Source of the DNA: Thermoproteota archaeon
GTDB taxonomy: Archaea > Thermoproteota > EX4484-205 > JAAOZP01
Assembly: GCA_049700215.1 (NCBI GenBank)
Contig: JBNAVT010000010.1
Coordinates: forward strand, 1 to 57,565
Reading direction: 5' to 3'
Length of the DNA: 57,565 nt
This document shows, piece after piece, positions 3 through 51,782 of this stretch (position 1 is its first letter; every line of letters begins with the position of its first letter). The notes under the pieces are model-generated. The model ran no database searches and was not told the origin of the DNA. It saw only the letters and a list, made by a program, of their open reading frames with translations. A program made the translations under genes and the position numbers.

Positions 3-350
3 TCCAATATATTAAGAATTGCAAATGATATATTGCTTAAAAGAGGTCAGTATCCAAAGGATGTACTAAAATCCTCTCTCTTATACATTAGAGAAAAAGC
101 AAAAACTATAGGTGATATTCTGGGCATTATGGATAAGGTTCCATCTGTGGCTTTGAAGGAAATTACATTGCTAAAAGCACAGAGACTCGGGATTGATATT
201 GAGGCTGTAAAGAAGTTGATTGAGGAGAGGGCTTTAGCTCGTAAGGAGAAGAATTTTGCAAAATCGGATGAGATAAGAAACAGACTCCTTGAGATGGGGA
301 TATCTGTTATGGATACACCAGAGGGTACCATCTGGAGGATTGAGAGATGA
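3..350 (+). CDS. cysS: Cysteinyl-tRNA synthetase C-terminus (5' cut by window edge; probably from a different genome)
   Basis: C-terminal anticodon-binding helix pattern ([40 protein letters not shown]). Frame is open from nt 3 and the DNA is AT-rich. A complete cysS is also present at 31864. Confidence 0.85.
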
Positions 351-736
351 AGATTGTAGTTCAGAAATTTGGAGGGTCTTCTGTTGCGGGACCTGAAAAG
401 ATAATGAGGGTTGCGGAAAAGGTAGTGGCAACAAGGAAGAAGGGATATAATGTGGTGGTTGTGGTCTCTGCAATGGGTGATACAACTGATAATCTCTTAA
501 ATCTTGCAAGGAGTGTAAATCCCAATCCTCATAGAAGAGAGCTGGATATGCTGCTGTCTGTTGGTGAGAGAATCAGTATGGCACTTTTATCAATGGCAAT
601 AGGTAAACTTGGCTATGAGGCAATCTCACTTACAGGTTCTCAATCTGGAATTATTACAAATGATAGTCATAACAATGCAAGGATCATTGAGATAAGGCCT
701 TTTAGAATTACAGATGAGCTTGAAAAGGGGAAGATA
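347..736 (+). pseudogene. lysC: Aspartate kinase N-terminal ~130 aa, fused in frame to an unrelated protein
   Basis: [36 protein letters not shown] and [10 protein letters not shown] motifs. The expected IVIVAGFQG after ELEKGK is replaced by IPSGSITE. Confidence 0.85.
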
Positions 737-3700
737 CCGAGCGGCTCGATAACTGAGGCAAGCTTCATCATACCCGAGGGTTTTCCAATAGAGCCCGCTA
801 AGAAGCTCTGGCTCTTCGCAGCCCAGCTCATCTCAATGGGTTGTTCAGATGAGGAGATACGCCGAGCCATAAGGGAGGCAAACGATACCCTAGCGCTTCC
901 GGCGCAAATAAGCTACGAGCTTAAGGATTACACCATAATCCCAAAATACGAGGAAATCCGTGTTGATCGAAACAACGAGGGAGGCATATCCGTACAGGTT
1001 CCTTATTTGGCGGTTGATAACCGTGGAAATGAGGTGGATGCAGGTTCCATAAGATATGAGAGCAACAGGACAAACCTATTCCACATCCTATACAGGTATC
1101 CTAAGAAAAGAACCTACCTGGTTAGGTGCATCGACCCAGACGCGTACATCTTCGCATTTATCGACCTGGGGACAGGCGAGGTTTTCAACAAGACCGCTAG
1201 GGTGAATATAGGGCTATTTTCCAACATGAGCCAAGGTTATTTCACTGAAGGTTTCCTCATCGCCGTTCCAGGTCACTTCGAGGAAGTTCGTGAAGCGGTG
1301 GGATCACAGGTCAGCGAGTTTAGAGTTTTACTTCCAGCATACGATCCAATAGTGGTTGATACTTCCATCTCGTCCACTAGAGTGGGAATCGGGGATACCA
1401 TAACGATAACCGCTCAGATAAGGAACCCTCAGGAGATAAGGGGGAGCTACAGGATTTTATTGGGTGTAAGGTTCTCCGATAGTGACGCATTCGAAGCATG
1501 GGCTTCTCCTCCGGGTTCTCTATATTCGATTGTCCCGCTCTACCTGAAGGCTAAGAAGCCGGGAGTTTACACGATCACGATTTACTTCGCCGTCGTCGAA
1601 CCAGAGAATTTGGATGCCGTGTTTTGGAACGGTGGAAAAACAGCAACATATGTTATTACTGTGCTGCCGGAGCCCCCCAAGCTTAAGATCGAGCTGGAAG
1701 CCCAAGCCTTGGCCAAGTTCGCTAACCTAACCGTAACTTTACTAAACAAAGGGGGACAGGAGGCGAGGGATGTCAAGCTATTCATAACTGGAGACGTTGA
1801 GAACAAGGAACTAGGTGTCAGCATAGTCAGGGGCTCGTGGACTGAAAGCTTAGTGGTGAAGCTACTCTCTCCGATCGCCAGCGTTAACGTCACCGTGGTC
1901 TACCACGACCTTGAGGGAAAAAGATACACGAATACAGCGCTGACAACAATCTCAACCGCGAATTTCGTAACCCCAGAGGAGTGGAGAACCTATGTCGTTG
2001 AGGTTGAGGGCTACGAGGAAACTAAGAGGGTCTTCGTCCCGGGCTACAACGGCGCGACACACGTTAGGCTCTACCTCATGGCCAGCGATGCCATACCTGA
2101 GTGTCTCTCCGGTTTACCTCGAGGATTAAGGTTCATCCCAATCTCGCCGAGCGGTTTCACGCTCACACTCGAGAATGCGAGCAACGTCTCCCAAATAACC
2201 TCCAAGGATCCTAATGTGAGGTACATGCTGGTTGATGTTAAACCAACCTTCCTCTGGGAAAAGGCGATGCGAGAGGATGAGGTGAAGAAGCTCCTTCGTA
2301 TCGATGAGGATGAGACTCTGGAGCCAAGCTGGATACCATCGGGCTACGAGATTAGGCTGCTCAGAGAAGAAGTGCTAAGCCAAAGAGAGGTGGTAACAGT
2401 TACCGACGATTTCTACGAGTGGCTCAAATATAACAATTGGGAGGACTACGGTTACAAGTATGAGGACACTGGGGTTAAGAAATGGGACCTGAACAAGGCC
2501 ACGACGAAGCTTTCTCACGGGAAAACTATGGAATTCCTCTATCGTCCATTAGCATATGGAGGAGGCAATCTAGTCCAGGGATTACTCGTCAAGAACTATG
2601 CTGCAATGGATATGGAGTACAGGCTCGAGGTCCTCAGCGGGCCGATAGCGGAGATACAGCCGGATTGCTCCATCATCAACGTCCCGGCTCACGGTAGCGT
2701 CCCGCTAAACCTCGTTCAGCTGGAGGACGCAAGGTTTCCAGTCCTCCTCTCCCTGAAATATGGGGACAGGGTCATAGCATCATTATGGGTGCATTCTACA
2801 GGTGGCAAGGTTTCCGAGTTCTGGAGCGGCTTCTGGGATGGAGTTAAGGAAAGGGCTCCCGGAATAATCCTAACGACAGCGATACTCATAATACTTGCAG
2901 TGCCAACTGGGGGAAGCTCGCTCTTGGCAGAGGTGAAGGCCCTCCTCGCCTCAGCGGTGATTCCCAGCTTAATGGCCATCGGCATAGCTTCGAACATCAG
3001 GGAGATCTTCGAAGCCTATTCGATCTACACAAAGATGGATGAGGTCGCCGAGGTCTTCGAAGGGTATTCTCAGAGGGCTGCGTACGCAGGCTACTTTGAT
3101 TCCCACTTATTCTTCCAAGTCCTAAAGAGCAGAATTAGAGAAGGCCAGGGGCTCGTGGTTGGAAGCACTGCATTAGACCTCCTTACCGACGTGACGATAA
3201 GGGATATCTTCATAACCTTTTGAAAAGAGGATGCGACGGAGTATGAGAAGGGGAAGGCAACAGGAAGACTCGTCGGAGCGGCACTGTCCTTCATCACCTA
3301 CTCAGCCACATATTACAGGTTCCTAAGCGAAGGGCCAAAGCTCCTCTCTTGGGGAGGAAAGATAAAGGCATTCCTGAAGGGAGTCTATAATTGGATAAGC
3401 CCCTCAATATGGGATTTAGGAGTCATCGCGGGAAAGCTGACGGCGCGCGCGCTTAAGTGCTGAGGAACTCGAAGGTTTGAGGAAAGCGATTGTTGAACTT
3501 GGAAGCTTCGAAGACGGGCTTAAACTTTTCGATATTTACTTCATGATTGCAGGGCTGAGTATTTGGGGAAAAGCACAGTTTCTCGACGGGCTCGGCACCA
3601 TAGCGGAGAAGTCGAAGGAAGCTATGGAAAGCGTCATCGAATGGTTGAGCAAGCTCGAGGAGGCGGAGCTGAAGGACGTTATAACTTTAGGGATAATAAG

Positions 3701-5317
3701 CAAGATTAGCACGCTGGACGAGAACGGGCTGAGGAACATTGCCATCGCCCTTGAAGACCCGCGGATAGCGATGGAGCTTGCGGGAGAATACGAGTCGTTG
3801 TCTAAGGTCCTTCCGAAGCTGAGGGGAGCAAACTATTACGAGTTTAGAGATAGGAGGGTTGGTAGGGGAGGACACATATATCTTGGGAAGGAGATAGAAG
3901 CTGGAGATTACAGGATCATAGCCAAGGTGAAAATCGATGGGGAGATAAAAACTATAAGCTGGACGAAAATGAGGGGGGCGGAGGAAAATTATTATATCGA
4001 TTACATCTATGTTCCAAAGAAACTTAGAGATGACCTGGGCATATGTGGAGGGGAAACGGTACTCACGCTCCAGATAGTTAAATACATACCTGAATTCTAT
4101 TTCCCAAGGTCGTTCAGGGATGGCATATTCGTTCTCGACTTCACTGACGAAAAACTGAAAATAGGAGGTGAACTGGTGGATTCTTCGCGGTTCGACCCGG
4201 ATGAGATGTTCAGGGATACTGGCAAAGGCCTTGGCATAACCGTGGAGACAGGAATTAGGAGCACCATCGGAACAGGAAGCCCATTAATGCTCAGGCTATA
4301 CGAGGATGGCTCAATCAGCTTCGTGAAGAGAACAGTAGCCGGGGAGACGGTGGATAACGTTGACGCGATATCCTTGAAAAACACGCTTGAAGAACTCTCG
4401 CTTAAAGAGGGGGGCGTCGAAAGAGTCGTGAGGCTTAAGGAAGGAGAAATACTCTACTTGGAGATGGAGGTACATGGTCACAAATACATATTCCCGATTA
4501 AAACGCTAAGCTACCGGGAGGCGAAGGACTATAAGATATACGTTGATGCTGAAGGTGGAAAGACTACGGCGCTCCTCACATACCTCAAGATAATATTCGG
4601 CTGTGATGCGATTGATGAGATACAGAGGAAAATGGAGGCTGGAGAGTTGAAGCTTGTCGCAACGCTGGAAGATGAAACGAAAGTAACAACCAGAGGACCG
4701 AGAATGGAGATCACAAACGAAGGTTTAGACATTGTTTCAATAGGTTTTTACTCGCCTAAATTAGAGCCGAGACTTACGTTAGAAGAAGCGTATAACTATC
4801 TTAAAAGAATTGGAATAAAAGACGAGTTAATCAACAAGGTCGTCGAGGAATACATCGAGTTCATGGGATATAGTGCAGAGGAAGTTGAAAGCAGAATTGG
4901 AGGAGATATAAACTACTTGGGTGACTACGGCGAATGGATACTAATTGAACACGATGCTCCGAGAGTTACAGGAATAAAGTACAGGGTCTATTTAAACGGT
5001 AAATTGCGTATCGCAGATATTGTGGAAACGGATAGTGTAGTTGAAGTAAAATACTGGAGGAGCAAAGAATCGTATGAAATCTGGTTTGAAAACCCTGTAG
5101 CATTTAATGATTTTGTTAACGATTTGAGGGGAGACAAATATGTTATGGAGAAAAACGGGTTAAGAAAAGTATGTCTTGTTTTTGTAAGAAGGTTTTGAAC
5201 GACGCTACGTTCAACTACTACATGCAAAAGTTGAGGGATGCCTTAGGAGGAGATACGAGCTGGCTTGAAACATTCAATGGCTTTGAAGAATATAAATCGA
5301 AGTATTCGGGGAGATAA
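716..5317 (+). pseudogene. Disrupted paralog of the giant secreted polymorphic-toxin-like protein, with a C-terminal PD-(D/E)xK-like domain
   Basis: Clearly colinear with 51783-56645 from ELEKGKIPS to EFWSGFWDG. Defects: in-frame TGA at 3221, frame change at a (GC)5 tract at 3443-3452, and a frameshift near 5180 (the alternative frame continues KVLNDATFNYY...SGR* to 5317). The C-terminus has GDYGE...IADIV...VVEVK. Confidence 0.75.
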
Positions 5318-14587: not shown

Positions 14588-14963
14588 GTGTATAAATTGG
14601 GGGTTCCTGAGATCGGGCTTGTCGTGTGCAACAGCGGGGCCTCGAACACTGGGCAACTGACAGGGTTGGCTGCGCTTAAAGTTGTTGAGAAGCTGGGAGG
14701 CGATAGAGTAGGGATATGCTCGTTGCCCGCGTTAGCCAACAAGATTCCGAGGCAAGTCATGCTTGTTAAGGAGATTAAACGCCTCATCATTGTCGACGGT
14801 TGCCACAACGAGTGTTCAAGAAAAATACTTGATGACTTAGGGATCAAATACGGCAAGTACCTGAATCTGGGGCATGATCTTGGGATTAAAAAACTGTGGC
14901 CCTTTACCACTATGAATTATTCCGAAGAGGATGTTGAAAAAGTTTCTTCAGCAATAATGAAAA
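14588..14963 (+). pseudogene. DGC-domain putative zinc-binding protein; 3' end replaced at a (GC)5 tract
   Basis: CNSGASNTGQ, GICSL and IIVDGCHNEC. The sequence after KS-ARA is out-of-frame DNA from another gene. Confidence 0.75.
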
Positions 14964-14973
14964 GCGCGCGCGC

Positions 14974-15421
14974 CCAAGGAGGCAGAGGTTTTCAGCATCG
15001 GTTTCGAGGAATACGAGGGACCGGTAAAGAGCATCGAGGTTTTTAGAAGCGAGTTTACAACAATCCAATTGGGAAAAATAGTTGAAATAGGTTTAGGCAT
15101 GCTCGGTAGGCAAGACCAGATGCTCGGTAAACAGGATCTAATGTTGGAGAAACAGGATGTGATGCTAGGGAAGACGGATCAAATGTTGCAGAAGCAAGAT
15201 TCTCTGCTTGAAAAGCAGGATATTATGTTAGGAAAGATGGATTTAATGTTGGAGAAGCAAGATACCGTGATTGAAAAAATCGATAACTTAGGGGAGAAAA
15301 TAGATAACTTGGGTGTGAAAGTTGACGGTCTTAGAGAAGACTTGAAATCATGCTTGATGGAAGGTTAACGGCACTGGAGAAAGACGTTGCACTGATAAAG
15401 AGTAAGCTCGGAATCGTCTAA
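14974..15421 (+). pseudogene. 5'-truncated acylphosphatase/coiled-coil-type protein with (ML.KQD) heptad repeats; frameshifted near the end
   Basis: Frame reads PKEAEVFSIGFEEYEGPVKSIEVFRSEFTTIQLGKIVEIG, then 7-aa repeats. The tail RLTALEKDVALIKSKLGIV* is in a shifted frame. Confidence 0.6.
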
Positions 15422-17392: not shown

Positions 17393-18741
17393 AAATGCCC
17401 TATTCTGAAGAGGTTGAGAAAAGGCTTTCCGAGAAAGGCGTTAAGCCCGGCGACAGGATTAGGCTTGAACGCGGCAAGCTGATGGTGGAGGGGGTTCTCC
17501 TCCCAAGGGAGGAGGTTGACTTTGGAGACGGAAGCGTCCTCGTGATAAAGCTTGACAATGGTTACAACGTGGGCTTCAGGCTGGACGGTGGCGAAATCTT
17601 TAAGCTTGAGGGCTCGGTTGAGCTGGGAAAGTTTAAGGCGCTGGAGAAGGTTGAGCAGGATAAAACACTCCCGCCCGTCTCGATTTTTTCAACAGGCGGA
17701 ACCATAAGCGCCAGAATAGACTACTATACTGGAGGCGTCTCGATGCTTTTCACGCCTGAAGAATTATTCTACAATGTTCCCGAGGTTTTGAAAATCGCCT
17801 ACTTGAGGAGGGTTGAAAGACTCTTCAGCCTCGCTTCGGAAGACATGTCTCACAGAGAGTGGTCCACCATGGCTAGAAAGGCTGCTGAAAGCCTGGCTGA
17901 GGGCGACGCCGGTGTTCTGATTCTCCACGGAACCGACACGATGCACTATACTTCAGCAGCCCTCTCGTTCATGCTCAGGGGGTTGAACGCTCCAGTTATA
18001 CTCGTAGGCTCGCAGAGGTCCAGCGACAGGGGCTCCAGGGACTCCGACATGAACATAATCTGCGGGCTTCACGCCGCTGCAAGGATGAACCTGGGGGAAG
18101 TAGCCGTATGCATGCACGCCGAGTCCAGCGATACTTTCAACCTTGTGATGAGGGGGACGAGGGTGAGAAAAATGCATTCGACAAGAAGGGATGCTTTCAA
18201 ACCGGTGAACTCACCCCCCTTGGCAAGGGTCTGGCCTGATGGAAGGGTCGAGATGGTTGAGAAAGAGTACAGGCCTAGGAGCACGGATCCCCCCACTGTC
18301 GACGATGCTTTCGAGCCTAAGACTGCGCTGGTTAAAGCCTACCCGGGCTCAGACCCGGAGGTCGTTGACTTCCTAGTGGACAAGGGTTACAGGGGTATCG
18401 TGATAGAGGGCACTGGAATGGGGCATGTCCCTACGGAGCCACTAGACAGGAAACTATCCTGGGTGGACAGTGTGAAGAGGGGGCTGGAGGAGGGTGTGGT
18501 CATAGCCATGGCTACTCAATGCGTCTTCGGCAGGGTGGATCCCTACGTTTACAGGAATGCTAGGATAATGATGAAGCTCGGAGTGACTTACTGCGAAGAC
18601 ATGCTGAGCGAAGTGGCTTACGTTAAGCTCGGCTGGCTCCTGGGCCACGGCTTCGACAACGAGACCGTCAGGAGGCTCATGCTGCACAGCTTCGCCGGAG
18701 AAATCTCCCGAAGATCCCTCTACTCAACATACAGGCTTTAA
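17389..18741 (+). CDS. gatD: Glu-tRNA(Gln) amidotransferase subunit D
   Basis: KLDNGYNVG, STGGTIS, HGTDTMHY and GSQRSSDR. Adjacent to gatE. Confidence 0.97.
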   Translation: MKMPYSEEVEKRLSEKGVKPGDRIRLERGKLMVEGVLLPREEVDFGDGSVLVIKLDNGYNVGFRLDGGEIFKLEGSVELGKFKALEKVEQDKTLPPVSIFSTGGTISARIDYYTGGVSMLFTPEELFYNVPEVLKIAYLRRVERLFSLASEDMSHREWSTMARKAAESLAEGDAGVLILHGTDTMHYTSAALSFMLRGLNAPVILVGSQRSSDRGSRDSDMNIICGLHAAARMNLGEVAVCMHAESSDTFNLVMRGTRVRKMHSTRRDAFKPVNSPPLARVWPDGRVEMVEKEYRPRSTDPPTVDDAFEPKTALVKAYPGSDPEVVDFLVDKGYRGIVIEGTGMGHVPTEPLDRKLSWVDSVKRGLEEGVVIAMATQCVFGRVDPYVYRNARIMMKLGVTYCEDMLSEVAYVKLGWLLGHGFDNETVRRLMLHSFAGEISRRSLYSTYRL

Positions 18742-18986
18742 TCCTTCTTAATCTTCCTTATGGCGAGAGTCTTAGCCTTCCCGTCGGACAGAACCCTGTA
18801 TTCACCGCTCAAATCCTTCCTGCTTAGAAACCATCTCACCGCCTTCCTCAGCCTCGTGTTCGAAACGTTTTCAACCATGATCTTCCCAGAGCTCTCCTCA
18901 ACCTTAGCCGACAGCTTCCTGCCGAGAAAGTCAACCAGCTCTCTAAGCGTTTCCCCAGGAAGTTTTGAAGCGTCCAGCTCAGCCAT
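18738..18986 (-). CDS. Ribosomal protein eL22-like
   Basis: 82 aa, basic. SNTRLRKAVRWFLSRKDLSGEYRVLS resembles the eL22 core [26 protein letters not shown]. Confidence 0.6.
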   Translation of the reverse strand: MAELDASKLPGETLRELVDFLGRKLSAKVEESSGKIMVENVSNTRLRKAVRWFLSRKDLSGEYRVLSDGKAKTLAIRKIKKD

Positions 18987-19037
18987 GGTTAACCGTGAAC
19001 AGGCTGGTTTAAATGGTTTACTGATACCCCTTGAGCG

Positions 19038-19691
19038 TCAAGACCAGAGCCTGCTAACCAGGCTGGTGAAACCCTGGTTCCCAACTAGGGCAGCCATGTA
19101 GAAACCCATCAACCCCATTTCAATCCAGGCTTTAGCAAGTATGGGCGTGAGGAGAGTTACTAGAAAGCCTGCAGCAGCCGGGGGCGCGAAAAGGGGGATA
19201 ATAACCAGGAAGAAGAACACTGTGAAAAGACACTCCGGAACATAGCCGAGGAGCGTGGAGAAAATAGTCAGCAATCCTTTCCTCCTCCTCTCCATTATCC
19301 TGAGGCTCCTGCTGATCAGGCCCACGGACAGGCCTGTAAGCATCTTGCCGAATACGAAGCCCGGCAGGAACAGCCATGTTAACCCACTCGTAGAGCCGAA
19401 GTATAGCCCGCTTCCAAGGCCGGCGATAACCCCGACGGCTGAGCCTGCCAAAGGGCCTCCGAAGAAGCCTGCTATCAGCGTCCCCATGTGGGACAAGTCT
19501 AGCGCAACCTGGCCCCAGTTTAAAACGGTTATCGAAGCCAGAAACAGAATATTGCTTAAAGCCCCCATCATGCCTATGAAAGCCACTCTACGCGCCCTGC
19601 TGAACACGGGTAAGGTAGTTCTCTCGACTCTACACGTCCCCGCTTCTTTAAGACGAGAAACTTCAGCCATCTCTCCACCAAAAAGGCTCAC
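19038..19691 (-). CDS. ECF transporter S-component-like membrane protein
   Basis: RVAFIGMMGALSNIL...LDLSHMGTLIAGFFGGPLAG; about 6 TM segments. Confidence 0.7.
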   Translation of the reverse strand: MSLFGGEMAEVSRLKEAGTCRVERTTLPVFSRARRVAFIGMMGALSNILFLASITVLNWGQVALDLSHMGTLIAGFFGGPLAGSAVGVIAGLGSGLYFGSTSGLTWLFLPGFVFGKMLTGLSVGLISRSLRIMERRRKGLLTIFSTLLGYVPECLFTVFFFLVIIPLFAPPAAAGFLVTLLTPILAKAWIEMGLMGFYMAALVGNQGFTSLVSRLWS

Positions 19692-19820
19692 AATGCTATA
19701 TATAAATTTAGTGACAGTTTGTAGAAATGTTTACACATGCTTTTTCTACACGCGCATTATCCACTTTCCCCTATAAACACCCCATCTTTCAGCAACCGTT
19801 ACGATTCTTAGCGTGTGCTA

Positions 19821-20508
19821 CTATATATAGCCCTTCCGCTCTGCAAACTCATCGAATTTCTCGTATTGCATTTTGAAGATTTCCTCATACCCCCTAGGCG
19901 GAGCTTTCAGCGGGAAGTCAACTTCCCTGCTCACCATGTCCATCGCGTCAAGCACTTTTTCAATCATCCTCAACTTCTCATCGAGGTTCATCCCGCTCGA
20001 GTTGAAGTGCGAGTAGAAGAATGTGAATTTACCTCTAGGAGGTATATAGTGGACGATTTCAATGCCGGCTTTACTGCTGACCTCGCGGGCAATTTCATCA
20101 TGGTAGTCCAGCCAAGCTATTATGCTCTTATACTTCTGCTTAAGCTCATCCCAAGTGCTCCTGTCGTGTATCCTCCTCATCACCTCCTCGTACTCTTTCC
20201 TCTCAATCCTCGAGCGCTCATCGAGATCCATATCCCAATATCCGGGAATGGTTTTCGACATCCTCCTACTTATGAATTCAAGTAGTGTATCTTCAATTTC
20301 ATATTTACTGTCAGAGAGGATGAACACTTCCCCATCGAAACACTCCTCTATGTTGGGGGCAGTCCAAGTCCCAGTGGTAACCTCCCACTTTTTCCTCCGT
20401 TCCTTTCCATCACGCGTTATCATAGGAGAACTTGTAACAGGATACTTTATGACGAAGTATTTATATTCCTTTCCATAGCGCTTGTTCATGCATTCAACTA
20501 ACCTTTTC
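19821..20508 (-). pseudogene. Orphan paralog of the putative immunity protein at 51047-51778, 5'-clipped at (GC)7
   Basis: Aligns by eye along its length, e.g. EECFDGEV/ESVDGIV, DEIAREVSSKAGIEI/DEVARRVSKEYGVEV, SHFNSSGMNLDEK/SEFDGRNMDEETK. Confidence 0.65.
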
Positions 20509-20629
20509 AGCGCGCGCGCGCGCTTTATCTGCACCTCCATGAACCATATGAAGCCATTCATGCTTCCCGACGTGTCTAGGAAGACCGCTCCCTTCTCTAT
20601 GTCAATGCCGTATTTCTCGAGCGCGCGCG

Positions 20630-21072
20630 TTGGAATTTCTTGATAAAAGGGCTCCGAGCTTATATCTTTGTGTCTCCTTCTTCTTCCCGCCATACTCGTA
20701 AGCAGCCATTTTATGAGCTTCATCAACTATCACCAAGTCCCATCTTGCCTCGGCCAAGCTCGACATGATATCCTCCTGCTTGGCGAAATCCATTGAAGTA
20801 ATAGCCTGATTTTCCTCGAGCCAGACATTTCTACCCCATGAAGCATTCATCACAGCCCTATCTATAGCTCTGAATGTCTCGCCGAATTTTTCACGCATTT
20901 CTCTAAGCCATTGATCCCTAAGGTGCCAAGGTATGACTATTAGAATACGATTGACCAATCCCCTTTGCTTAAGCTCTTTAAGCACTAGGCCAGCCATGAT
21001 CGTCTTTCCGGCACCAGGGTCGTCGGCAAGGAGAAACCTGATCCTCGGATGCTTCAGTATGTAGTAGTATAC
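20630..21072 (-). pseudogene. Internal fragment of a SNF2/SF2 helicase (Walker A to Walker B only)
   Basis: VYYYILKHPRIRFLLADDPGAGKTIMAGL...QW...WDLVIVDEAHK...LSRNS. It has no start or stop, and both ends are (GC)n tracts. Confidence 0.88.
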
Positions 21073-21087
21073 TAGCGCGCGCTAGTA
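21070..21087. repeat. 18-bp perfect palindrome containing TAGCGCGCGCTA
   Basis: TACTAGCGCGCGCTAGTA. Confidence 0.9.
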
Positions 21088-21251
21088 CTTCGTAAGAAAG
21101 AACCCTTGGGTAGTGCCAGCTACATTGATAGGAGGTCTAGGGCTTAGGTTAGCCCTACTAGCATCGCGCGCCAACTACCCTCAGCGCTATTTAAAAACTC
21201 TTAATAATACAGCTAAGCTTTTTATCCAAGCCGGGGGAATAGGGTTAGTAA

Positions 21252-22214
21252 ATGAATATTGCAGTAGTTACTCCAGGGGGAGACGCGCCGGGTGTAAACT
21301 CTGCGATCAGGGCTGTGGTCAGGTCTGCTGCTTCCCAAGGCTTCAAGACTCTTGGTGTTGAAAGGGGGTACATGGGTCTGATAGAGGGTGCTTTCAGACA
21401 GTTGACTCCGAGAGACGTGAGCGGGATAATAAACACTGGCGGGAGCATTCTGAAGTCCAGTAGGTGCGAGCTTTTCAAGACGCCTGAGGGTTTGGAGAAA
21501 GCCTCTGAGAACCTCAAGTCTAGGAATGTTGACTGGCTGGTTGCAATAGGCGGGGACGGGTCTCTGAAGGGTGCTAAAGAGGTCAGTGAGGTGAGCGGTA
21601 TACCCGTCGTGGTCGTGGCTGCGTCGATCGACAACGATATGGCTGGCGTAGACGAGACAATAGGCTTCGACACTGCTGTCAACACTGCTGTAGAGGCTGT
21701 GGACAAGATTAGGGACACGGCGGTAACTTTCGAGAGGGTCTTCATAGTAGAGGTCATGGGGAGGCAGCGCGGCTTCCTTGCTGTCGACGTAGCACTGGCT
21801 TCAGGCGCTGAGATTGCTCTCATACCGGAGCACCCGTTGACCCAGGAGGATGTTGCCCAGAGGCTCGTGAAAATGGGTTCCTTAGGTAAGAAGTCTAGCA
21901 TAATAGTTAAGGCTGAGGGAGCCATGGGAGACCCGTTTGAAACAGCTTCAAGGCTTAGCATGCTAACCGGCTACGATTTCAGGGTTACTGTGCTGGGCCA
22001 TATTCAAAGGGGCGGAGTCCCGTCGGCGAGGTCGAGAACCCTGGCATGCCTCTTCGGGAACCATGCTGTCAGGCTGGTTTCTGAAGGCAAGGGGAACAGG
22101 CTTGTAGGCCTGAGGGATAACAGGGTTGTCGACATCAGCATACTCGACTCATACAGCAGCGTTAAAAAGATAGATGAGGACAAGTATAGGCTGGTCAGCC
22201 TGCTCGCGATCTAA
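21252..22214 (+). CDS. pfkA: 6-phosphofructokinase, PfkA family (probably ATP-dependent)
   Basis: GGDAPGVN, GGDGSLKG, SIDND, IGFDTA, VEVMGR and VLGHIQRGG. Confidence 0.92.
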   Translation: MNIAVVTPGGDAPGVNSAIRAVVRSAASQGFKTLGVERGYMGLIEGAFRQLTPRDVSGIINTGGSILKSSRCELFKTPEGLEKASENLKSRNVDWLVAIGGDGSLKGAKEVSEVSGIPVVVVAASIDNDMAGVDETIGFDTAVNTAVEAVDKIRDTAVTFERVFIVEVMGRQRGFLAVDVALASGAEIALIPEHPLTQEDVAQRLVKMGSLGKKSSIIVKAEGAMGDPFETASRLSMLTGYDFRVTVLGHIQRGGVPSARSRTLACLFGNHAVRLVSEGKGNRLVGLRDNRVVDISILDSYSSVKKIDEDKYRLVSLLAI

Positions 22215-22405
22215 GCATTACTGCCTACAACCCGTCCCTGCCTACATAACCCGCATCATGCGGATGGTTTACAGCTTAACGGTGAAACGAGGAAAAAGTG
22301 TTTAACAAGCCTGATTCCCGCTCCTAAGCTTTTTAAAAGCCTTTGAAAGCGACGATTCGGAAAACGTATTTATACCCTGCTGAGGAATGCTTCGGAAAAC
22401 ACTAG

Positions 22406-24682
22406 ATGCCTAGCCAGAAGTCGGAGGAGTTAGCAGCGTACCGGATTAACATAAACGGCATTGTGCAGGGAGTTGGATACAGGCCCTTCGTATACCGTAT
22501 TGCCAGCAGCCTCGGACTCAAGGGTTTCGTCCTTAACTCTGGAAACGGGGTTCTAATAGAGGTTGAAGGAAGGCCTGGGGACTGCTTAAGATTCATAGAG
22601 AGGCTTAAGACGGAGAAGCCTCCTAGGGCTGTCGTTAAAACATTCTCCTGCATGCAGATACCCGCGAGGGGTTACAGGGGGTTCAGGGTTGAGCAGACCC
22701 GCGGCGAGGAGGTTGAAACCCTTTGTCCGCCTGACGTCGCCGTCTGCAAGGACTGTTTAGACGAGCTTTTCAACCCTAGGGACAGGAGACACCTTTACCC
22801 TTTCATAAACTGTATAAACTGCGGGCCACGGTTCACGATACTTGAGAAACTACCCTACGACAGGGTTAACACAAGCATGAAAACCTTCAGGATGTGCGGC
22901 GACTGCGAGAAGGAGTATTCTGATCCCTCTGACAGGAGGTTTAAGGCTGAGCCCAACGCGTGCAGCAGGTGTGGGCCGAGGGCTAGGCTCTACCGTCGTG
23001 GCAGGCTCATAAGGGTTGAAGACCCTGTTTCAGAGGCGGCCAGGCTGATAAACAGGGGGTTCATAGTCGCGGTTAAAGGGTACGGGGGGTTCCACCTTGC
23101 TTGCGACGCAACAAGCAGGAGCAGCGTCACGGAGCTTAGGAGGAGGAAGAAAAGGGGCAACAAGCCTTTCGCAATAATGGTTAAGAGTGTTGAGGAGGCT
23201 GGGAGGATTGTTGAGCTTAACGATTCCGAGGAAAAATGGCTCACTCATTATTCTGCCCCGATAATCCTCGCGAGAAAGAAGGAGCCGAACCCTGTTGTAG
23301 AGGAGGTTGCCCCCGGCATGAGGTACCTCGGGGTCTTCCTACCCTATACCCCGATACACCATGTTCTCATGAGGAGTGTTGAGCCTCCGGCGATAGTTCT
23401 AACGAGTGGAAACGTTTCTGAGGAGCCGATAGTGTTTAGGGATGGCGAGGCCTTTGAAAAGTTTAAGGATATGGCTGACTATATTCTAACTTACAACCGT
23501 AGGATAGTCAACTTCGCCGACGACTCGGTGGGCTTCGTTCAAGACGGCACGCTTAGACTCGTCAGGAGGAGCAGGGGCTTCGTTCCCGAGCCTGTTGAGG
23601 TTGAGCCTAAAGTCGACGGCGTGCTCGCGATGGGGGCTGACCTGAACAACACTTTCGCTCTAGCGAAAAAAGGCAGGGTTTTCATGAGCCAGTACATGGG
23701 CGACCTGGAGAACATGCTCATAAGGAAGAGATATCTTGAGGCGATTAGAAGCATGCGGCGGCTTTTAAACCTGGAGTATAGAAGGATTGCCCATGACCTC
23801 CACCCGGCTTACTACTCGACCCAGATAGGGGTTTCGCTGGACGGGGAGAAGACGGGTGTACAGCATCATTACGCTCATGTTCTTTCAGCGATGGCTGAAA
23901 ACAGTATCCTGGGCTCAGAGGTTTTGGGAATAGCTTTCGACGGAACCGGCTACGGCGAGGACGGTAGCCTCTGGGGATCGGAGTTCCTCATCGTCAGGAG
24001 GGGGGAGTACGTTAGGAGGGGCCACTTCAAATACGTACCGATGCCCGGCGGGGAGAAGGCTGTCCTAGAACCCGCGAGGATGGCTTTCAGCTACCTTTAC
24101 GACGCGATGGGCGACGATGCTTTAAAGATCAACATGGGGTTGAGCGACAATGTTAAAACAGTCTTGAAAAGAATGGTTGACAGGAGGATCAACACCCCTA
24201 TGACGTGCGGCCTTGGAAGAATGTTCGACGCCGTCTCAGCCCTCCTAGGAGTATGTTTAACAAGAACCTTTGAGGGGGAACCTGCTGTAATGCTTGAAAT
24301 GGCTGCTGGAGTGAGCGATGGCGAGAGCTATCCTTTTAAAATCACTGGTGTGAAAGAGTATGTTGTGGACACTGCACCCATTATACGCGCGATAGTTGAA
24401 GACCTTGAAAGAAACACGCCGGTTAAAAAGGTCAGCCGAAGGTTTCATGAAACCATCGCGAGGATCACTGTTGAGCTGGCGGACACCATAAGGCTTGAGG
24501 AGGATGTCGAAACTATTGTTTTAACTGGGGGAGTTTTCCAGAACAGGATACTTTCTTCAAGAGTTAAGCGTTTAGCCGAGGAACACGGTTTGAAAACCTT
24601 CTTCAACAACATTGTCCCGACTAACGACGGTGGAATATCCCTGGGGCAGGCTGTAGCAGTCAGCCTGATGGAGGAGAAGTGA
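22406..24682 (+). CDS. hypF: [NiFe]-hydrogenase maturation carbamoyltransferase
   Basis: GIVQGVGYRPF, two zinc fingers, HDLHPAY, QHHYAH, DGTGYG and NDGGISLGQ. Confidence 0.97.
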   Translation: MPSQKSEELAAYRININGIVQGVGYRPFVYRIASSLGLKGFVLNSGNGVLIEVEGRPGDCLRFIERLKTEKPPRAVVKTFSCMQIPARGYRGFRVEQTRGEEVETLCPPDVAVCKDCLDELFNPRDRRHLYPFINCINCGPRFTILEKLPYDRVNTSMKTFRMCGDCEKEYSDPSDRRFKAEPNACSRCGPRARLYRRGRLIRVEDPVSEAARLINRGFIVAVKGYGGFHLACDATSRSSVTELRRRKKRGNKPFAIMVKSVEEAGRIVELNDSEEKWLTHYSAPIILARKKEPNPVVEEVAPGMRYLGVFLPYTPIHHVLMRSVEPPAIVLTSGNVSEEPIVFRDGEAFEKFKDMADYILTYNRRIVNFADDSVGFVQDGTLRLVRRSRGFVPEPVEVEPKVDGVLAMGADLNNTFALAKKGRVFMSQYMGDLENMLIRKRYLEAIRSMRRLLNLEYRRIAHDLHPAYYSTQIGVSLDGEKTGVQHHYAHVLSAMAENSILGSEVLGIAFDGTGYGEDGSLWGSEFLIVRRGEYVRRGHFKYVPMPGGEKAVLEPARMAFSYLYDAMGDDALKINMGLSDNVKTVLKRMVDRRINTPMTCGLGRMFDAVSALLGVCLTRTFEGEPAVMLEMAAGVSDGESYPFKITGVKEYVVDTAPIIRAIVEDLERNTPVKKVSRRFHETIARITVELADTIRLEEDVETIVLTGGVFQNRILSSRVKRLAEEHGLKTFFNNIVPTNDGGISLGQAVAVSLMEEK

Positions 24683-27004: not shown

Positions 27005-27170
27005 TTGACACTCCCACGGCTAAAGCCAGCGGGAACCCCGGTTCGTCAGCCTGAGGCCTCACTATACCTGGTTCAGGACCATGTGTCAAGCCAGCCCCCG
27101 CCATAAGCGTGTAGCGCATGACCCGCTTAATAGTGTTCGTAGCCCGCTGTAGTCGGCGTTATAGAGCGGA
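27005..27170 (-). mobile_element. IS200/IS605-family remnant: decayed tnpB 3' end plus right-end hairpin
   Basis: The minus strand ends TTCCCGCTGGCTTTAGCCGTGGGAGTGTCAA, a typical right-end hairpin plus TCAA. Upstream broken frames read YNADYSG...RVMRYTLMAGAGLT, like TnpB C-termini. Confidence 0.65.
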
Positions 27171-27196
27171 CTAGGATTCTTCTCCTAAAGCGCGCG

Positions 27197-27856
27197 CTAA
27201 TTGTAATACGAGTATCGGGCAACTGGGCGTTTACGTTCCCCTCTGAAGAGCAGTAGTGCAACGATTACTCCAGTTATGAACCCACCGATATGAGCCCAAT
27301 ACGCGATCCCAACGTATTCTGGAAGCATGCTTTCGAAAAGCTGCATGAGGAACCAGAACCCAAGGTAGACAACTGCGGGAAGCCTCACCATGAAGAAACG
27401 GTAGAAAACCCTCACCCTAGCGAAGGGAAACATAACCATGTATGCGCCCATAACCCCGGAGATAGCGCCCGAGGCCCCTATGGCTGGGACTGTTGAAAAG
27501 GGTTCGATCATGAAGTGAGCTAGGCATGCGGCGACTCCGAAGAAAAGGTAGAAGAACAAGAACTTAACATGCCCCATCCTGTCCTCCACGTTGTCTCCAA
27601 AGACGTAGAGGAAAAGCATGTTGCCGAAAATGTGCAGAATATCCGCGTGGAGGAACATGGATGTAAACATTCTCAACACTCCCTCGAAAGGGTCGAGTGT
27701 GAGAAGCCTAGGTATAAAGCCGTATTGCAGTATCATGGTCTCGTAGGCAAACGGCTCAGACAACTCTAGAATGAAGACACCGGTGTTAACACCTATCAGC
27801 ATGTATATTATGATCGGATAGGTGTAACGCTTAGTCTCATCCCCGGTTGGAAACAT
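27197..27856 (-). CDS. Rhomboid intramembrane serine protease
   Basis: FLHADILHIFGNMLFL, GASGAISG and AYWAHIGGF. Confidence 0.94.
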   Translation of the reverse strand: MFPTGDETKRYTYPIIIYMLIGVNTGVFILELSEPFAYETMILQYGFIPRLLTLDPFEGVLRMFTSMFLHADILHIFGNMLFLYVFGDNVEDRMGHVKFLFFYLFFGVAACLAHFMIEPFSTVPAIGASGAISGVMGAYMVMFPFARVRVFYRFFMVRLPAVVYLGFWFLMQLFESMLPEYVGIAYWAHIGGFITGVIVALLLFRGERKRPVARYSYYN

Positions 27857-43199: not shown

Positions 43200-43404
43200 A
43201 TTTTATGGTTTAAACTATCCGCGGCTTGCAAAGAGAATTATTTGCAGGATACTCCAACCTGTTGTTAACCATCCCGTAAAGATGAAAGCACGTAGCGGAA
43301 TCACGCGTCATATTCTTACTCTAAAAGAAGTTTTAAACCTTAACTAGAATGATCTTACGGTTGATTTTTACTTCTGATGATCAAATTCCTAATGACGCGC
43401 GCGC

Positions 43405-43845: not shown

Positions 43846-46551
43846 TTGATGTCTTATCTGAAGGAAGAAATTGCAAGGAGAGTGCATTCCATAAGTGTTG
43901 ACGAGGCATTACGTATACTTAATACAAGTATTAAGGGGCTGTCCAGCGAGGAGGCTAAAGCTAGGCTTGAAAAACATGGTTACAACGAGTTTACTATCGG
44001 TGAAAAGATTTCGCCTTTAAAAATCTTTCTTAACCAGTTTAAAAATATCCTAATACTGATTCTAATCGGTGCGACACTGCTTTCACTAGCTACCGGACAT
44101 GATATTGATGCCCTGGTTATTCTCGTCATAGTTTTCGTGTCGGCTATACTCGGGTTTTACCAGGAGTATCGTGCCGAAAAAGCTTTGGAGGCGCTTAAGA
44201 AAATGCTCAGTCCAACTGTTACTGTGGTAAGGGATTCTAAAGAAGTCACGATACCTCTGAGAGAAGTTGTTCCAGGCGACATACTTGTATTGAAAGAGGG
44301 AGACAGGGTTCCTGCAGACGCTAGATTAATCGAAACGATCAACTTGCGTCTTAACGAGGCTTCCTTGACTGGTGAGTCTGTGCCCGTGTTTAAAGATGTA
44401 GAGCCTCTTCCAGAGGATACGCCTGTTTCAGACAGGAAAAACATGGTTTTCTCTGGAACTGAGGTTGTCGGTGGAAAAGGAAAGGCAGTTGTTGCCGCCA
44501 CAGGTATGAATACGGAGTTTGGCAGAATAGCGAAGGACGTGGCTGCTGCTGAAAAAGAGGAGACACCCTTAGAGAAGAAAGCTAAGGAAATAGGGAAATG
44601 GCTCGGAGGAATAGCGTTGACCATAGTAATCAGTGTGGTAATAATTGGGTTTTATAGGGATATGCCGTTGATAGAGGCTTTGCTTTTCGGCGTTGCTTTA
44701 GCGGTGGCAGCAGTCCCAGAGGCTTTGCCAGCTGTCGTGACGGGTAGCCTTGCCATAGGAATGTATAGGATGGCGAAAAGGAATGCGCTCGTTAGAAGGA
44801 TGCCGGCTGTAGAAACTTTGGGAACAGTGACTGTTATCTGCTCAGATAAGACTGGAACATTAACTAAGGGCGAGATGACTGTTCGGAAAATTTATGTTCT
44901 CGGCAATAGTGTTGAGGTCTCTGGAGTCGGTTATATTCCCGAAGGTACTTTTCATGTCGATAGTGGTGATGTGAAGGTTTTACAGGACGAGGGCTTCAAA
45001 CATTTGATGAAATGTTCGCTTTTATGCAATGATGCTGAGCTGATACGTGAAGATGATAAATGGTTTATTAAGGGAGATCCTACGGAAGGCGCGCTTCTGG
45101 TTGCTGCTGCAAAATCTGGCATGCGGCAGGAGTTGAGAAAAGATTATCCGCGAATAAATGAAGTCCCATTCAGCTCTGAGAGAAAACTTATGACTACTGT
45201 CCACTTGACTCCGGAAGGCGATAAAATTTTCTGTATGAAAGGCGCGCCGGAGAAAGTCTTAGAGAAATGCACTCACATATATGAACTTGACGGTGTTAAG
45301 GAATTAACCGAGGAAAGAAAGAAAGAGATATTGATGGTTAATAATGAGATGGCTGGAAACGCCCTTAGGGTTTTAGGAGTAGCCTGCAAAAGAACAACCG
45401 AGGACGTAAATAATCTGAATGAAGAAGCTGTAGAAAGCAACATGGTGTTCCTTGGCTTGATTGGCATGATGGATCCGCCTAGAGAAGAGGCAATAAAGGC
45501 TGTAGAAATATGCAAGCAAGTAGGGATAAAAACAGTTATGATAACTGGCGACCATAAGCTTACGGCGGTTTCAGTAGCTAAGGAGCTGGGGATCTATAAA
45601 GAAGGTGACTTGGTTTTGACGGGCGAAGAATTGGAGAAGATGTCAGATAGGGAATTAGAGGATATGGTTGAGAAGGTGACGGTTTACGCTCGTGTATCTC
45701 CTGAGCATAAACTGAAAATTGTTCGAGCATGGAAAAACAACGGGCATATTGTTGCGATGACCGGAGATGGGGTTAACGATGCGCCAGCCTTAAAACACGC
45801 TGATATCGGTGTCGCAATGGGTATAACAGGCACGGAGGTCTCTAAAGAAGCTGCGGACATGGTGTTAGCGGATGACAACTTTGCAACAATCGTGAACGCA
45901 ATTGAACTTGGCAGATGGATTTACGATAACATAAAGAAATACCTAACATACCTCTTGCAGGCAAATCTGGTTGAGATATTGATGCTTTCAGTAGCGGTTC
46001 TGCTCGGGTTCCCTATGCCACTGCTTCCAGTACAAATCCTTTACGTAAACCTTGCCACAGATGGTCTTCCCGCCTTAGCCTTAGGTGTAAGCCCACCAGA
46101 CCCAGACATAATGAAGAGGCCTCCTAGAGATCCAAAGGAAACAATATTCACTCGAGAAGTTAAATCGTTTCTTCTGCGTGCATTGATAGTGGAAGTACCT
46201 TTACTCATTTGGTTCTTCTTAGCATCTCTTCCAAATGAAGAATTTGCTCGCTCAAGGGTTTTCATAGCATTCATTCTCTTCGAATTGATTCTGGCATTAA
46301 CTTGCCGTTCATTAAAATATACTATTTTCGAAACGCGTCCCCAAAAGTTCTTGTTAGCAGCTGTCTCTTGGGAAATACTGCTTATGCTGATTCTAATCAG
46401 CTTCCCACTTTCTAGACAGGCACTTGGAATCGTTGAACTAGATCTAACTAGCTTCATATGGGCCATTGGCCTATCGTTAATAACCTTAGCCAGCATTGAG
46501 GGAACCAAGCTCCTGCTTAGGAATTCATCCAAGACTTCTTCCGAGAAATAG
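43846..46551 (+). CDS. P-type cation ATPase (type II, Ca2+-like)
   Basis: TGES, PEALP, DKTGTLT, KGAPE and TGDGVNDAP. Confidence 0.95.
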   Translation: MMSYLKEEIARRVHSISVDEALRILNTSIKGLSSEEAKARLEKHGYNEFTIGEKISPLKIFLNQFKNILILILIGATLLSLATGHDIDALVILVIVFVSAILGFYQEYRAEKALEALKKMLSPTVTVVRDSKEVTIPLREVVPGDILVLKEGDRVPADARLIETINLRLNEASLTGESVPVFKDVEPLPEDTPVSDRKNMVFSGTEVVGGKGKAVVAATGMNTEFGRIAKDVAAAEKEETPLEKKAKEIGKWLGGIALTIVISVVIIGFYRDMPLIEALLFGVALAVAAVPEALPAVVTGSLAIGMYRMAKRNALVRRMPAVETLGTVTVICSDKTGTLTKGEMTVRKIYVLGNSVEVSGVGYIPEGTFHVDSGDVKVLQDEGFKHLMKCSLLCNDAELIREDDKWFIKGDPTEGALLVAAAKSGMRQELRKDYPRINEVPFSSERKLMTTVHLTPEGDKIFCMKGAPEKVLEKCTHIYELDGVKELTEERKKEILMVNNEMAGNALRVLGVACKRTTEDVNNLNEEAVESNMVFLGLIGMMDPPREEAIKAVEICKQVGIKTVMITGDHKLTAVSVAKELGIYKEGDLVLTGEELEKMSDRELEDMVEKVTVYARVSPEHKLKIVRAWKNNGHIVAMTGDGVNDAPALKHADIGVAMGITGTEVSKEAADMVLADDNFATIVNAIELGRWIYDNIKKYLTYLLQANLVEILMLSVAVLLGFPMPLLPVQILYVNLATDGLPALALGVSPPDPDIMKRPPRDPKETIFTREVKSFLLRALIVEVPLLIWFFLASLPNEEFARSRVFIAFILFELILALTCRSLKYTIFETRPQKFLLAAVSWEILLMLILISFPLSRQALGIVELDLTSFIWAIGLSLITLASIEGTKLLLRNSSKTSSEK

Positions 46552-46718
46552 CGCGCTACGGCGTTTATTCAAAGAACAGTGCTGAAAATTATAATCCTTA
46601 TATTTTTACTATTTTTCTCCTATTTAACTTTCCCAAAGGAAGACATACTACCCGATTAAGTTCGCAGGATAATTATAAATCTTAAGCGCGTGCTATGAAA
46701 CTTAGTGTTAGCCTTTGA

Positions 46719-51001: not shown

Positions 51002-51046
51002 GTAGCGCGCGCGCTTAATCTCTCAAGCCGACTTATCCTTCTTCAC

Positions 51047-51778: not shown

Positions 51779-51782
51779 TCTT

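Follow-up and report, generated by a model that had tools for sequence, protein, structure and literature searches.

Among described concepts, the nearest to the motif analyzed here appears to be that of telomeric repeats inserted where breaks were repaired, and the motif's nearest look-alikes appear to be the mitochondrial GC clusters. In the parts of the reports on which we draw, interstitial telomeric repeats were interpreted, by species comparison, as a break-repair by-product of a specialised polymerase, and in vertebrates these short repeats were found at sites where the orthologous loci lack them (PMC2246262, PMC7215372, PMC8537989). We analyzed a window of 57,565 nt (positions 1 to 57,565 of contig JBNAVT010000010.1 of the Thermoproteota archaeon assembly GCA_049700215.1) and a short palindromic motif, [T]A(GC)4-5T[A], that likewise sits at sites where orthologous loci lack it. 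Telomeric repeats are templated by telomerase RNA, whereas in the present archaeal host the repeat is a self-complementary GC palindrome of fixed length, at the appearance of which sequence is usually lost. We regard it as probable that the motifs are scars of an illegitimate break-joining that has been active in one sub-clade of the genus, and that the interval of the window between an ECF transporter gene and pfkA holds one intact gene together with the debris of an Hma defence locus.

Like the motif, mitochondrial GC clusters are non-coding GC-rich palindromes; fast turnover, merging, and a link to recombination and to genome size are described for them in the part of the source used here (PMC4478555). 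The same part gives a length of 30-50 bp and putative target-site duplications (PMC4478555), whereas the motif has a unit of 10-12 bp, has no such duplications and nearly always replaces lost sequence. GC clusters of the mitochondrial type can fold as hairpins and insert without loss of target bases; the unit length of the motif and the loss of target bases in all five small events speak against such a cluster. A further parallel is HIP1 of the cyanobacteria, another short palindrome, of which, according to the portion of the report considered, a single lineage has a huge excess (PMC6604393). The archaeal motif is unlike HIP1 in avoiding genes, in lying at indel junctions, in having arisen by substitution in 2 of 25 cases, and in the absence of a C5 methylase from motif-rich genomes; within the genus, C5 methylases were detected in 2 motif-poor genomes only, in a survey confined to the C5 family. 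Typical of HIP1 are its spread through substitutions, its frequent presence in coding sequence and its link to a cognate methyltransferase. Full-text searches of the literature yielded nothing on the motif in archaea, and the papers that contain TAGCGCGCTA deal, to judge from their titles, with other topics; to our knowledge, neither the motif nor its association with the RadA2/mini-primase pair discussed below has been described.

The source genome (G000) is a metagenome-assembled genome (MAG) of 2.09 Mb in 85 contigs that is 94.6% complete, and the window lies on its contig C10. It contains 264 runs of at least four GC units, (GC)>=4, and no other dinucleotide behaves as the GC runs do. Shuffled sequences served as the chance expectation for motif counts. 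In the window, GCGCGCGC occurs 14 times (0.37 expected), GCGCGC 30 times (8.3 expected), and the 12-mer TAGCGCGCGCTA with up to two mismatches 13 times, including a degenerate copy at 19809 (1.72 expected). The length distribution has a sharp mode: A(GC)nT was counted 372, 53, 118, 33 and 2 times in G000 for n = 2, 3, 4, 5 and 6, respectively, and the total of 273 (GC)3 runs is about what the shuffles of the window predict. An A at position -1 and a T at position +1 are present in 78% of the runs. The outer bases, a T before the A and an A after the T, are each present in about 59%, and the two sides are independent of one another (35 TA..TA among 118 A(GC)4T, 40.9 expected). No conservation or palindromy was found beyond position +-2, palindromy having been looked for at positions 3-12. 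The runs avoid genes: 169 of 264 lie between open reading frames (ORFs) as crudely called by us, although intergenic DNA makes up 11% of the genome, and the median longest ORF over a run has 93 aa, compared with 359 aa genome-wide. They are clustered in gene-poor stretches, with 37% of the spacings below 1 kb versus 12% expected. GCGC and CGCG have observed/expected ratios of 0.90 and 1.12 in G000, which rules out a restriction-type avoidance of either tetramer. When paralogous DNA within G000 was compared, homology ended at the motif at 15 sites and spanned it at 4, whereas at control positions it ended at 9 and spanned 50 (Fisher p=6e-7).

Within this group of hot-spring archaea, expansion of the motif is confined to one sub-clade of the genus, a lineage-specific and genome-wide feature that the earlier note on this DNA, made from the window's letters, had overlooked. 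Among the 17 genomes of the genus, AGCGCGCGCT was counted 118 times in G000, 88 in G008, 70 in G002, 33 in G009, 32 in G007, 18 in G006, 16 in G010 and 6 in G013, compared with 0-3 times in the remaining nine. The counts were 0-9 in 24 genomes of other genera, as were those of the reversed-pattern controls, and the 12-mer was found 0-5 times in 384 further genomes of the phylum, with one exception (12, control 4).

For a comparison site by site, 117.6 kb of G000 (the window and three 20-kb stretches) were aligned with three to five relatives, and the orthologous DNA was read. Twenty of the 25 (GC)>=4 runs checked are at indel or rearrangement junctions (one of them an insertion), two are substitutions, and three have no homologue. 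The two substitution-born runs (C4:85447 and C4:90924) lie within ORFs, stem from a single substitution each and have no A..T flanks; they are background. The ancestral DNA lost at the junctions amounts to anything between 2 and about 4,800 bp, and a motif of 8-13 bp stands in place of it where aligned (Table 1). Nearly all recent joints of deletions or rearrangements in this group carry the motif. The polarity was fixed by two to four relatives at C10:14964, C6:30016, C13:38867 and the joints in a helicase gene, hmaA. The A and the T that flank the core are sometimes native and sometimes added. Thus, the motif lies exactly at homology breakpoints, is new together with the loss of ancestral sequence, is lineage-specific and is mostly located outside genes. 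The reverse test gave the same picture, because G000 homology crosses only 2 of the 60 motif sites of G008; at one of these two, both genomes share an orthologous motif, which shows that the motif is heritable. At two loci (G009:C6 around 58000, locus L088, and G002:C18 around 4218, locus L080), the relative has a motif of its own at the G000 breakpoint or at most 11 nt away from it, with different sequence behind the motif of each species. These loci look like recurrent break sites or hot spots.

The combination of a variable loss with one stereotyped linker, and of two sides that are independent, fits a trimming-and-joining repair and not a transposing unit that duplicates its target. In the proposed mechanism, a break would be trimmed by 2 bp to several kb, and the trimmed ends would be sealed via an all-GC self-complementary linker of 8-10 bp. 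The events would be double-strand break repairs, and the variable origin of the A and T would fit a microhomology of one or two bases between an end and the TA-flanked unit. The linker would be made or inserted by a dedicated activity, for which the RadA2/mini-primase pair is the best candidate. Repeated rounds would turn dispensable genes into short motif-bracketed scraps.

It is rather unlikely that the palindrome is itself a minimal selfish mobile element that, like the GC clusters of yeast mitochondria, enters non-essential DNA, and that the deletions, inversions and scraps arose secondarily by recombination between its identical, orientation-free copies. The smallest events come close to pure insertions (9 nt in place of 2, 4 or 5 nt), as such an element would produce; however, all five small events lost 2 to about 12 target bases, none has a target-site duplication, and the outer T (-2) and A (+2) are independent in the counts given above. 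The clustering of the copies (about 1 per kb in gene-poor stretches), the hot spots with different motif-bounded content at one locus in two species, and the inversion of a 222-aa gene between two copies in G000 relative to G008 would all be compatible with recombining copies, and (GC)7-9 runs could be two merged units. Yet, for the 335-, 784- and 1,578-bp deletions the relatives have no motif at either breakpoint, so that each of them would require a pair of earlier insertions, and a length of 10-12 bp is far below that of any known mobile palindrome.

Considerably less probable is the idea that pre-existing GC runs, as Z-DNA tracts or GCGCGC-type nuclease sites, are fragile or targeted and that the ends are religated in new combinations. 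De novo motifs at places where two to four relatives have no GC run would remain unexplained, GCGC and CGCG are not avoided, and motif-rich genomes have no C5 methyltransferase; the idea would nevertheless account for the recurrent breakpoints, at which independent motifs of two species lie within 11 nt or at the same border. Palindromic cohesive ends of type II enzymes regenerate the recognition site on rejoining, and palindromic ends at GC runs would likewise regenerate the site in any combination.

A Tc1/mariner footprint, that is, a duplicated TA around short inverted termini, has the form of the modal 12-mer, TA-GCGC|GCGC-TA. The motif could thus be an excision footprint of a TA-targeting Tc1/mariner-like transposon with GCGC termini, aberrant excision of which deletes the flanks. 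We consider this very improbable, because the outer bases are statistically independent, unlike a duplication, no relative has an occupied site at any of the 20 junctions examined, and no GCGC-terminated inverted-repeat elements were found in G000 (at least 16 of 20 matching bases, within 6 kb; repeats may be unassembled).

The interval between the ECF transporter gene and pfkA, the joints of which are denoted J1 to J4 (Table 1), had been viewed in the earlier note as a concatemer of four unrelated captured scraps, each bracketed by GC motifs. The motifs are located where they had been placed (19809, 20510, 20621 and 21073, with CGCGCGC at 21165-21171), and the interval is indeed a mosaic in which every joint carries a GC motif. 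The check proposed with that view, whether similarity stops at the motifs, gave a clear answer, as the homologies to G014, G008 and G002 all end or start there. The ECF gene side is 83-91% identical to relatives, up to window positions 19529-19742, the G008 homologue of the 222-aa gene aligns to 19917-20510, G014 homology covers only 20524-20620 and 20634-21072, and homology to the region upstream of pfkA in G002 begins at 21173 (94% identity). The borders of the four fragments could therefore be retained, but not their unrelatedness, since the pieces of 95 bp and 440 bp are collinear parts of one gene. The "immunity-like gene", which had been counted as a fragment, turned out to be a whole 222-aa ORF. 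An array of the integron type, which had been set aside from the start, is excluded: the interval resembles an integron in its serial modules separated by a recombination-type site, but the joints have 8-14 bp compared with about 50-150 bp for attC with its paired inverted core sites, and, unlike cassettes, which are whole and usually promoterless genes, two modules are internal pieces of one helicase gene in native order and two have no coding identity. No integrase was found among the ORFs scanned in 17.5-23.5 kb, a scan that included no search aimed at integrases.

The ECF gene and pfkA are on separate contigs in all five relatives compared (G002, G006, G007, G008 and G009), and their usual neighbours, as seen in G002, G007 and G009, sit on contigs C48 and C53 of G000. 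The adjacency of the two genes is peculiar to G000 and probably represents a genome-specific rearrangement joint. The degenerate motif at 19809 is probably an older junction. A 301-aa frame (19821-20726, minus strand) reads through two joints; here the 222-aa gene has been fused by chance to a remnant in the same frame. For the 66-bp piece at 19743-19808, neither G000 nor the fetched loci gave a further match, the 81-bp piece matched only itself there with blastn and tblastx, and an Rfam search of 18500-22500 at E<=0.1 yielded no match.

The two collinear pieces are the remnants of hmaA. The 439-bp piece was correctly recognized in the earlier note as an internal part of an SNF2 helicase (Pfam SNF2-rel_dom, 6.4e-11, and ResIII) and has 78% DNA identity to the G014 gene. 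For the 97-bp piece, DNA identity to G014:C74 1878-1974 is 72% and protein identity to aa 789-830 is 62%. The intact G014 gene contains the 97-bp piece 1,578 bp beyond the 439-bp piece, in the same orientation and frame, and has no GC run, including at all three breakpoints. The full-length helicase genes in relatives of the same genus and order encode 1,119-1,127 aa. PADLOC identifies the G014 protein as HmaA (E 9.9e-217), a DUF1156 methylase adjoins the gene in G014 and G007, and the G007 methylase is HmaB (E 2.2e-127). HmaA beside an HmaB DUF1156 methylase, the arrangement that characterizes Hma, is thus present in the relatives. The window retains about 180 of about 1,126 HmaA residues and has no HmaB; the Hma system is dead here. 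As the two pieces have kept their native order, orientation and frame, with 1,578 bp deleted between them, they are leftovers and not captured scraps. The view of a concatemer was abandoned for this reason and because the same motif marks plain deletions elsewhere; if the motifs are break-joining scars, leftovers are also what would be expected.

The 222-aa gene belongs to a family with at least nine paralogous places in G000. In G008, the homologue (60% identity) likewise lies beside the ECF gene, but it is inverted and has no flanking motifs. The protein has no Pfam or PADLOC family, and only four relatives were found among 5.8 billion proteins. A Foldseek search of the PDB with the AF2 model (pLDDT 87.5) returned nothing at E<=1e-3; the best match was 3cxj at 0.02, in addition to weak matches resembling secretion chaperones. 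A 65-bp scrap that duplicates a part of the family ends exactly at a GCGCGCGC run in G008 (C19:143728-143798; locus L019, 5728-5798), 1.4 kb away from the intact G008 gene of the family.

The earlier note had also asked for reads that span the junctions, and contigs built from the raw reads of two studies carry the joints. A contig from the reads of the second study (run X2) spans 20244-20662 and crosses J1 and J2, where the (GC)7 of J1 is shortened to (GC)6. Run X1 gave a contig that spans 20524-21400 and crosses J2, J3 and J4 into pfkA; X1 was not counted as independent because it may be the source sample. In the X1 contig, 205 different letters precede 20524, so that J1 is missing, and the last 30 of these resemble the bases before the homologous point in the intact G014 gene. 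This co-existing variant keeps more of hmaA, which makes J1 the youngest event, and the 95-bp piece was accordingly left by successive deletions and not imported. That the motif is an assembly or library artefact from chimeric MAG joins can hardly be maintained: all genomes are MAGs and X1 contigs break at (GC)7, one of them with another continuation, but the contigs from the two studies are unitig-based, one site is common to two species at the orthologous position, the motif avoids coding sequence, the genomes come from several assembly sources and include contigs of 250-440 kb, and the motif is far shorter than the word size of assemblers.

A candidate for the dedicated activity was found as a second, weak match to the primase small-subunit family, a stand-alone mini-primase (AEP) of 273 aa (G000:C17:241-1062). 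It has the DxD and SGxRGFHxHV motifs, and across 25 homologues neither DxD nor SGxRGFH, both catalytic, varies. Its model is nearest to archaeal PriS (E 5e-10) and is more distantly similar to polymerases of non-homologous end joining (NHEJ), with the PDB entries 2irx and 5dmu at E ~1e-5. A full-length replicative PriS was rejected: the score against TIGR00335 is 45.7 bits (cut-off 143.5), only the catalytic core aligns, and the same genomes have a canonical PriS of 377 aa. In all six genomes with an intact AEP gene (G000, G002, G006, G007, G008 and G013), the gene starts within a second full-length radA directly before it, the two overlapping at the stop codon of the latter. This RadA2 reaches 460.7 bits with NF003301 (cut-off 259) and has the Pfam domains Rad51 and HHH_5, which assigns it to RadA; it is about 50% identical to the canonical RadA, which was detected in 14 of the 17 genus genomes (not in G001 and G012; G016 was outside the test). 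RadA2 was not found in the 10 other genus genomes tested. Between species, the identity is 58-63% for AEP and 81-90% for RadA2. This accessory cluster of repair type is located at the end of C59 and at C17:1-1062 in G000 and at C7:376639-380750 in G008. In G008, a Y-family polymerase gene precedes the pair and a HEPN/nucleotidyltransferase pair follows, while the Y-family gene of G000 is 39 kb away from the pair. Additional AEP fragments exist, for example at G000:C85:3240-3359, abutting a GC motif.

AEP, whole or as fragments, was found in 7 of 8 motif-bearing but in none of 9 motif-poor genomes of the genus (one-sided Fisher p ~4e-4, counted by hand and uncorrected for relatedness); the G009 copy consists of fragments with stops in a protein search. 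In a tree of canonical radA and a ligase fragment, G011 is the sister of G006 with a bootstrap of 100, G010 stands beside G000/G002, and a motif-free clade of five genomes lies outside. The sister contrast is marked, as G006 has 18 motifs and the operon, and G011 has 3 motifs without it. These placements indicate several operon losses, each with few or no motifs. The association of the RadA2-AEP pair with the motif is a strong lead, not a demonstration. In close metagenome loci, the pair was present in 8 of 8, with 33 GC runs in 94 kb. Around AEP homologues of 37-48% identity, 72 loci contain no RadA2 but have 89 runs in 344 kb, and three of these loci have 15, 12 and 8 runs versus 0.07, 0.17 and 0.03 in shuffles. 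Distant AEP loci have similar run flanks and short ORFs. In one metagenome locus of a distant lineage (L191:4657-5349), the 3' end of the AEP homologue loses homology at a TAGCGCGCGC run, and its surroundings contain 12 runs in 10 kb and only short ORFs. In four genomes outside the genus with slightly raised 12-mer counts (G285, G105, G142 and G389), the AEP search yielded canonical PriS-like matches only. As a tentative proposal, a family of stand-alone AEP proteins of 260-290 aa, translationally coupled to RadA2 here, might make or install self-complementary (GC)4-5 linkers of unit length at broken ends, and this might be a new archaeal form of end joining.

The nearest enzymology is that of the LigD-type AEP polymerases, which add filler nucleotides in end joining. 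The LigD polymerase domain and the Methanocella NHEJ polymerase share the primase fold with the candidate, and loss and insertion occur together at the junctions. In AEP end joining, the filler consists of 1-3 random bases and the partners are Ku and a ligase, whereas here a palindrome is fixed, the partner is a RadA paralogue, and Ku (PF02735) was detected in none of the 17 genus genomes (the control Bacillus subtilis was detected). Reverse transcriptases were also found in none of the 17, and the Prim-Pol family PF09250 in one. The G008 locus further resembles the bacterial imuA-imuB-dnaE2 in combining neighbouring genes for a member of the RecA family, a Y-family polymerase and one more enzyme that is polymerase-like; the two clusters have the broad RecA and Y-family folds in common but are otherwise non-homologous. 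The bacterial set is a mutagenesis cassette. Two other enzymes were rejected. TnpB does not track the motif (G011 has 6, G002 and G009 have 0; TnpB genes are present in G000, G006, G007, G010 and G011), and ATP-dependent ligase has 1-3 matches in every genome, without an excess in motif-rich ones.

Several points weigh against break-joining scars and against the RadA2-AEP pair as their source. G010 has 16 motifs without a detectable AEP, and G009 has 33 motifs and fragments only. The link is correlative, with about three independent losses and one decay suggested by the two-gene tree and thus few independent contrasts, and the metagenome loci were picked around the AEP gene, without matched AEP-free contigs from the same samples. 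The failure to find Ku, a reverse transcriptase and, with the one match mentioned, the Prim-Pol family implies that this is not canonical NHEJ, and a length sharply peaked at n=4 is unexpected for untemplated tailing. The large deletions may have followed a two-step route, in which a palindrome is inserted and copies then recombine. The polarity of the events of 2, 5, about 12 and about 31 bp rests on G002 alone, the intergenic figure depends on our ORF calls, and every genome compared is an incomplete MAG (70-95% complete).

How broken chromosomes are rejoined in archaea that lack Ku is poorly known, and the co-occurrence of RadA2 and the mini-primase turns this open question into a hypothesis that can be tested at the bench. 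The stamped junctions allow genome erosion to be counted event by event, and the events include the demise of a defence system and an insertion sequence that was cut short. In annotating such genomes, one should read short ORFs and chimeric frames near motifs, such as the 301-aa frame, as debris. If the proposed origin is true, the scars record the history of every deletion and rearrangement in the genome, and the AEP family would account for why, in other uncultured archaea, the surroundings of its distant homologues are rich in GC runs and poor in genes.

Table 1. Features of the ECF-pfkA interval, other motif sites of the window, and junctions on other contigs of G000 (positions without a contig label refer to the window, C10)
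Feature	Position	Strand	Remarks
ECF transporter S-component gene	19038-19691	-	Pfam ECF_trnsprt, E 4.9e-10; left anchor of the interval
66-bp piece	19743-19808	.	between ECF upstream region and first motif; G008 homology stops at 19742
Degenerate motif TAGCGTGTGCTA	19809-19820	.	two C-to-T differences from TAGCGCGCGCTA; abuts stop codon of the 222-aa gene
222-aa ORF	19821-20489	-	intact gene, multi-copy family
J1, (GC)7	20510-20523	.	homology stops on both sides; length polymorphic
hmaA remnant, 97 bp	20524-20620	-	about aa 799-830, native reading frame
J2, GCGCGCGCG (20621-20629) + TTGG	20621-20633	.	replaces 1,578 bp of ancestral hmaA
hmaA remnant, 439 bp	20634-21072	-	SNF2 helicase core from Walker A to DEAH box, about aa 127-272
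J3, perfect TAGCGCGCGCTA	21073-21084	.	hmaA homology ends at 21072; unrelated bases continue in the G014 gene
Piece of about 80-81 bp	21085-21164/21165	.	source of the piece not found
J4, CGCGCGC (21165-21171) + (C)	21165-21172	.	border with pfkA upstream region
pfkA	21252-22214	+	Pfam PFK, E 2.3e-96; right anchor, promoter region upstream
(GC)5	3443-3452	.	multi-copy giant-protein gene family loses homology here
(GC)5 (C10:14964)	14964-14973		about 335 bp replaced; four relatives agree
tnpB remnant, 185 bp	27005-27197 incl. motif (remnant 27005-27189)	.	right end of an IS200/IS605-type element
CGCGCGCGC	43396-43404	.	joins tRNA-Arg flank to 150-bp 3' scrap of a membrane-protein gene
(GC)5	51005-51014	.	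three relatives, and paralogues within G000, lose homology here
Junction	C13:42335		2 bp ancestral replaced
Junction	C6:30016		4 bp ancestral replaced; two outgroups agree
Junction	C13:45999		5 bp ancestral replaced
Junction	C4:89764		about 10 bp ancestral replaced
Junction	C13:35119		about 12 bp ancestral replaced
Junction	C4:86433		about 31 bp ancestral replaced
Junction	C4:90139		about 62 bp ancestral replaced
Junction	C13:38867		325 bp ancestral replaced
Junction	C13:40909		784 bp ancestral replaced
Junction	C6:24624/24697		4.8 kb replaced by 157 bp with two motifs

Further sites of the window show what the junctions can do to genes. The deletion of about 335 bp at 14964 took away the last part of one gene together with the spacer and the bulk of the gene that follows; an ORF with a DGC domain (14588-15046) lost its last few codons, continues across the (GC)5 into what is left of that following gene and now has a chimeric C-terminus. 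The tnpB remnant is truncated at A(GC)4T (27190), and G009 has the empty site; copies related to the remnant overlap TnpB matches in G006 and G007. Two convergent paralogues of P-type cation ATPases (43846-46551, plus strand; 46719-49547, minus strand) have a degenerate motif, AAGCGCGTGCTA, between them at 46684.

TAGCTA is the second most over-represented 6-bp palindrome of G000 (338 copies; observed/expected 1.7, AGCT 0.74), and its excess could be unrelated or could represent a collapsed form of the motif. Two copies of the giant-protein family are present in the window. At 51047-56645 (minus strand), an ORF of 1,620 aa, to which no Pfam family could be assigned, precedes a 243-aa paralogue of the 222-aa gene. 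The second copy (347-5198, plus strand; 958 aa, 67% identical over 720 aa) has an amino-acid-kinase domain, 120 aa of it, at its start; its homology breaks off at position 3443, where the (GC)5 lies, and it is followed by a 573-aa ORF that is weakly similar to the C-terminus of the giant protein. This layout recalls polymorphic toxin/immunity loci with swapped C-termini.

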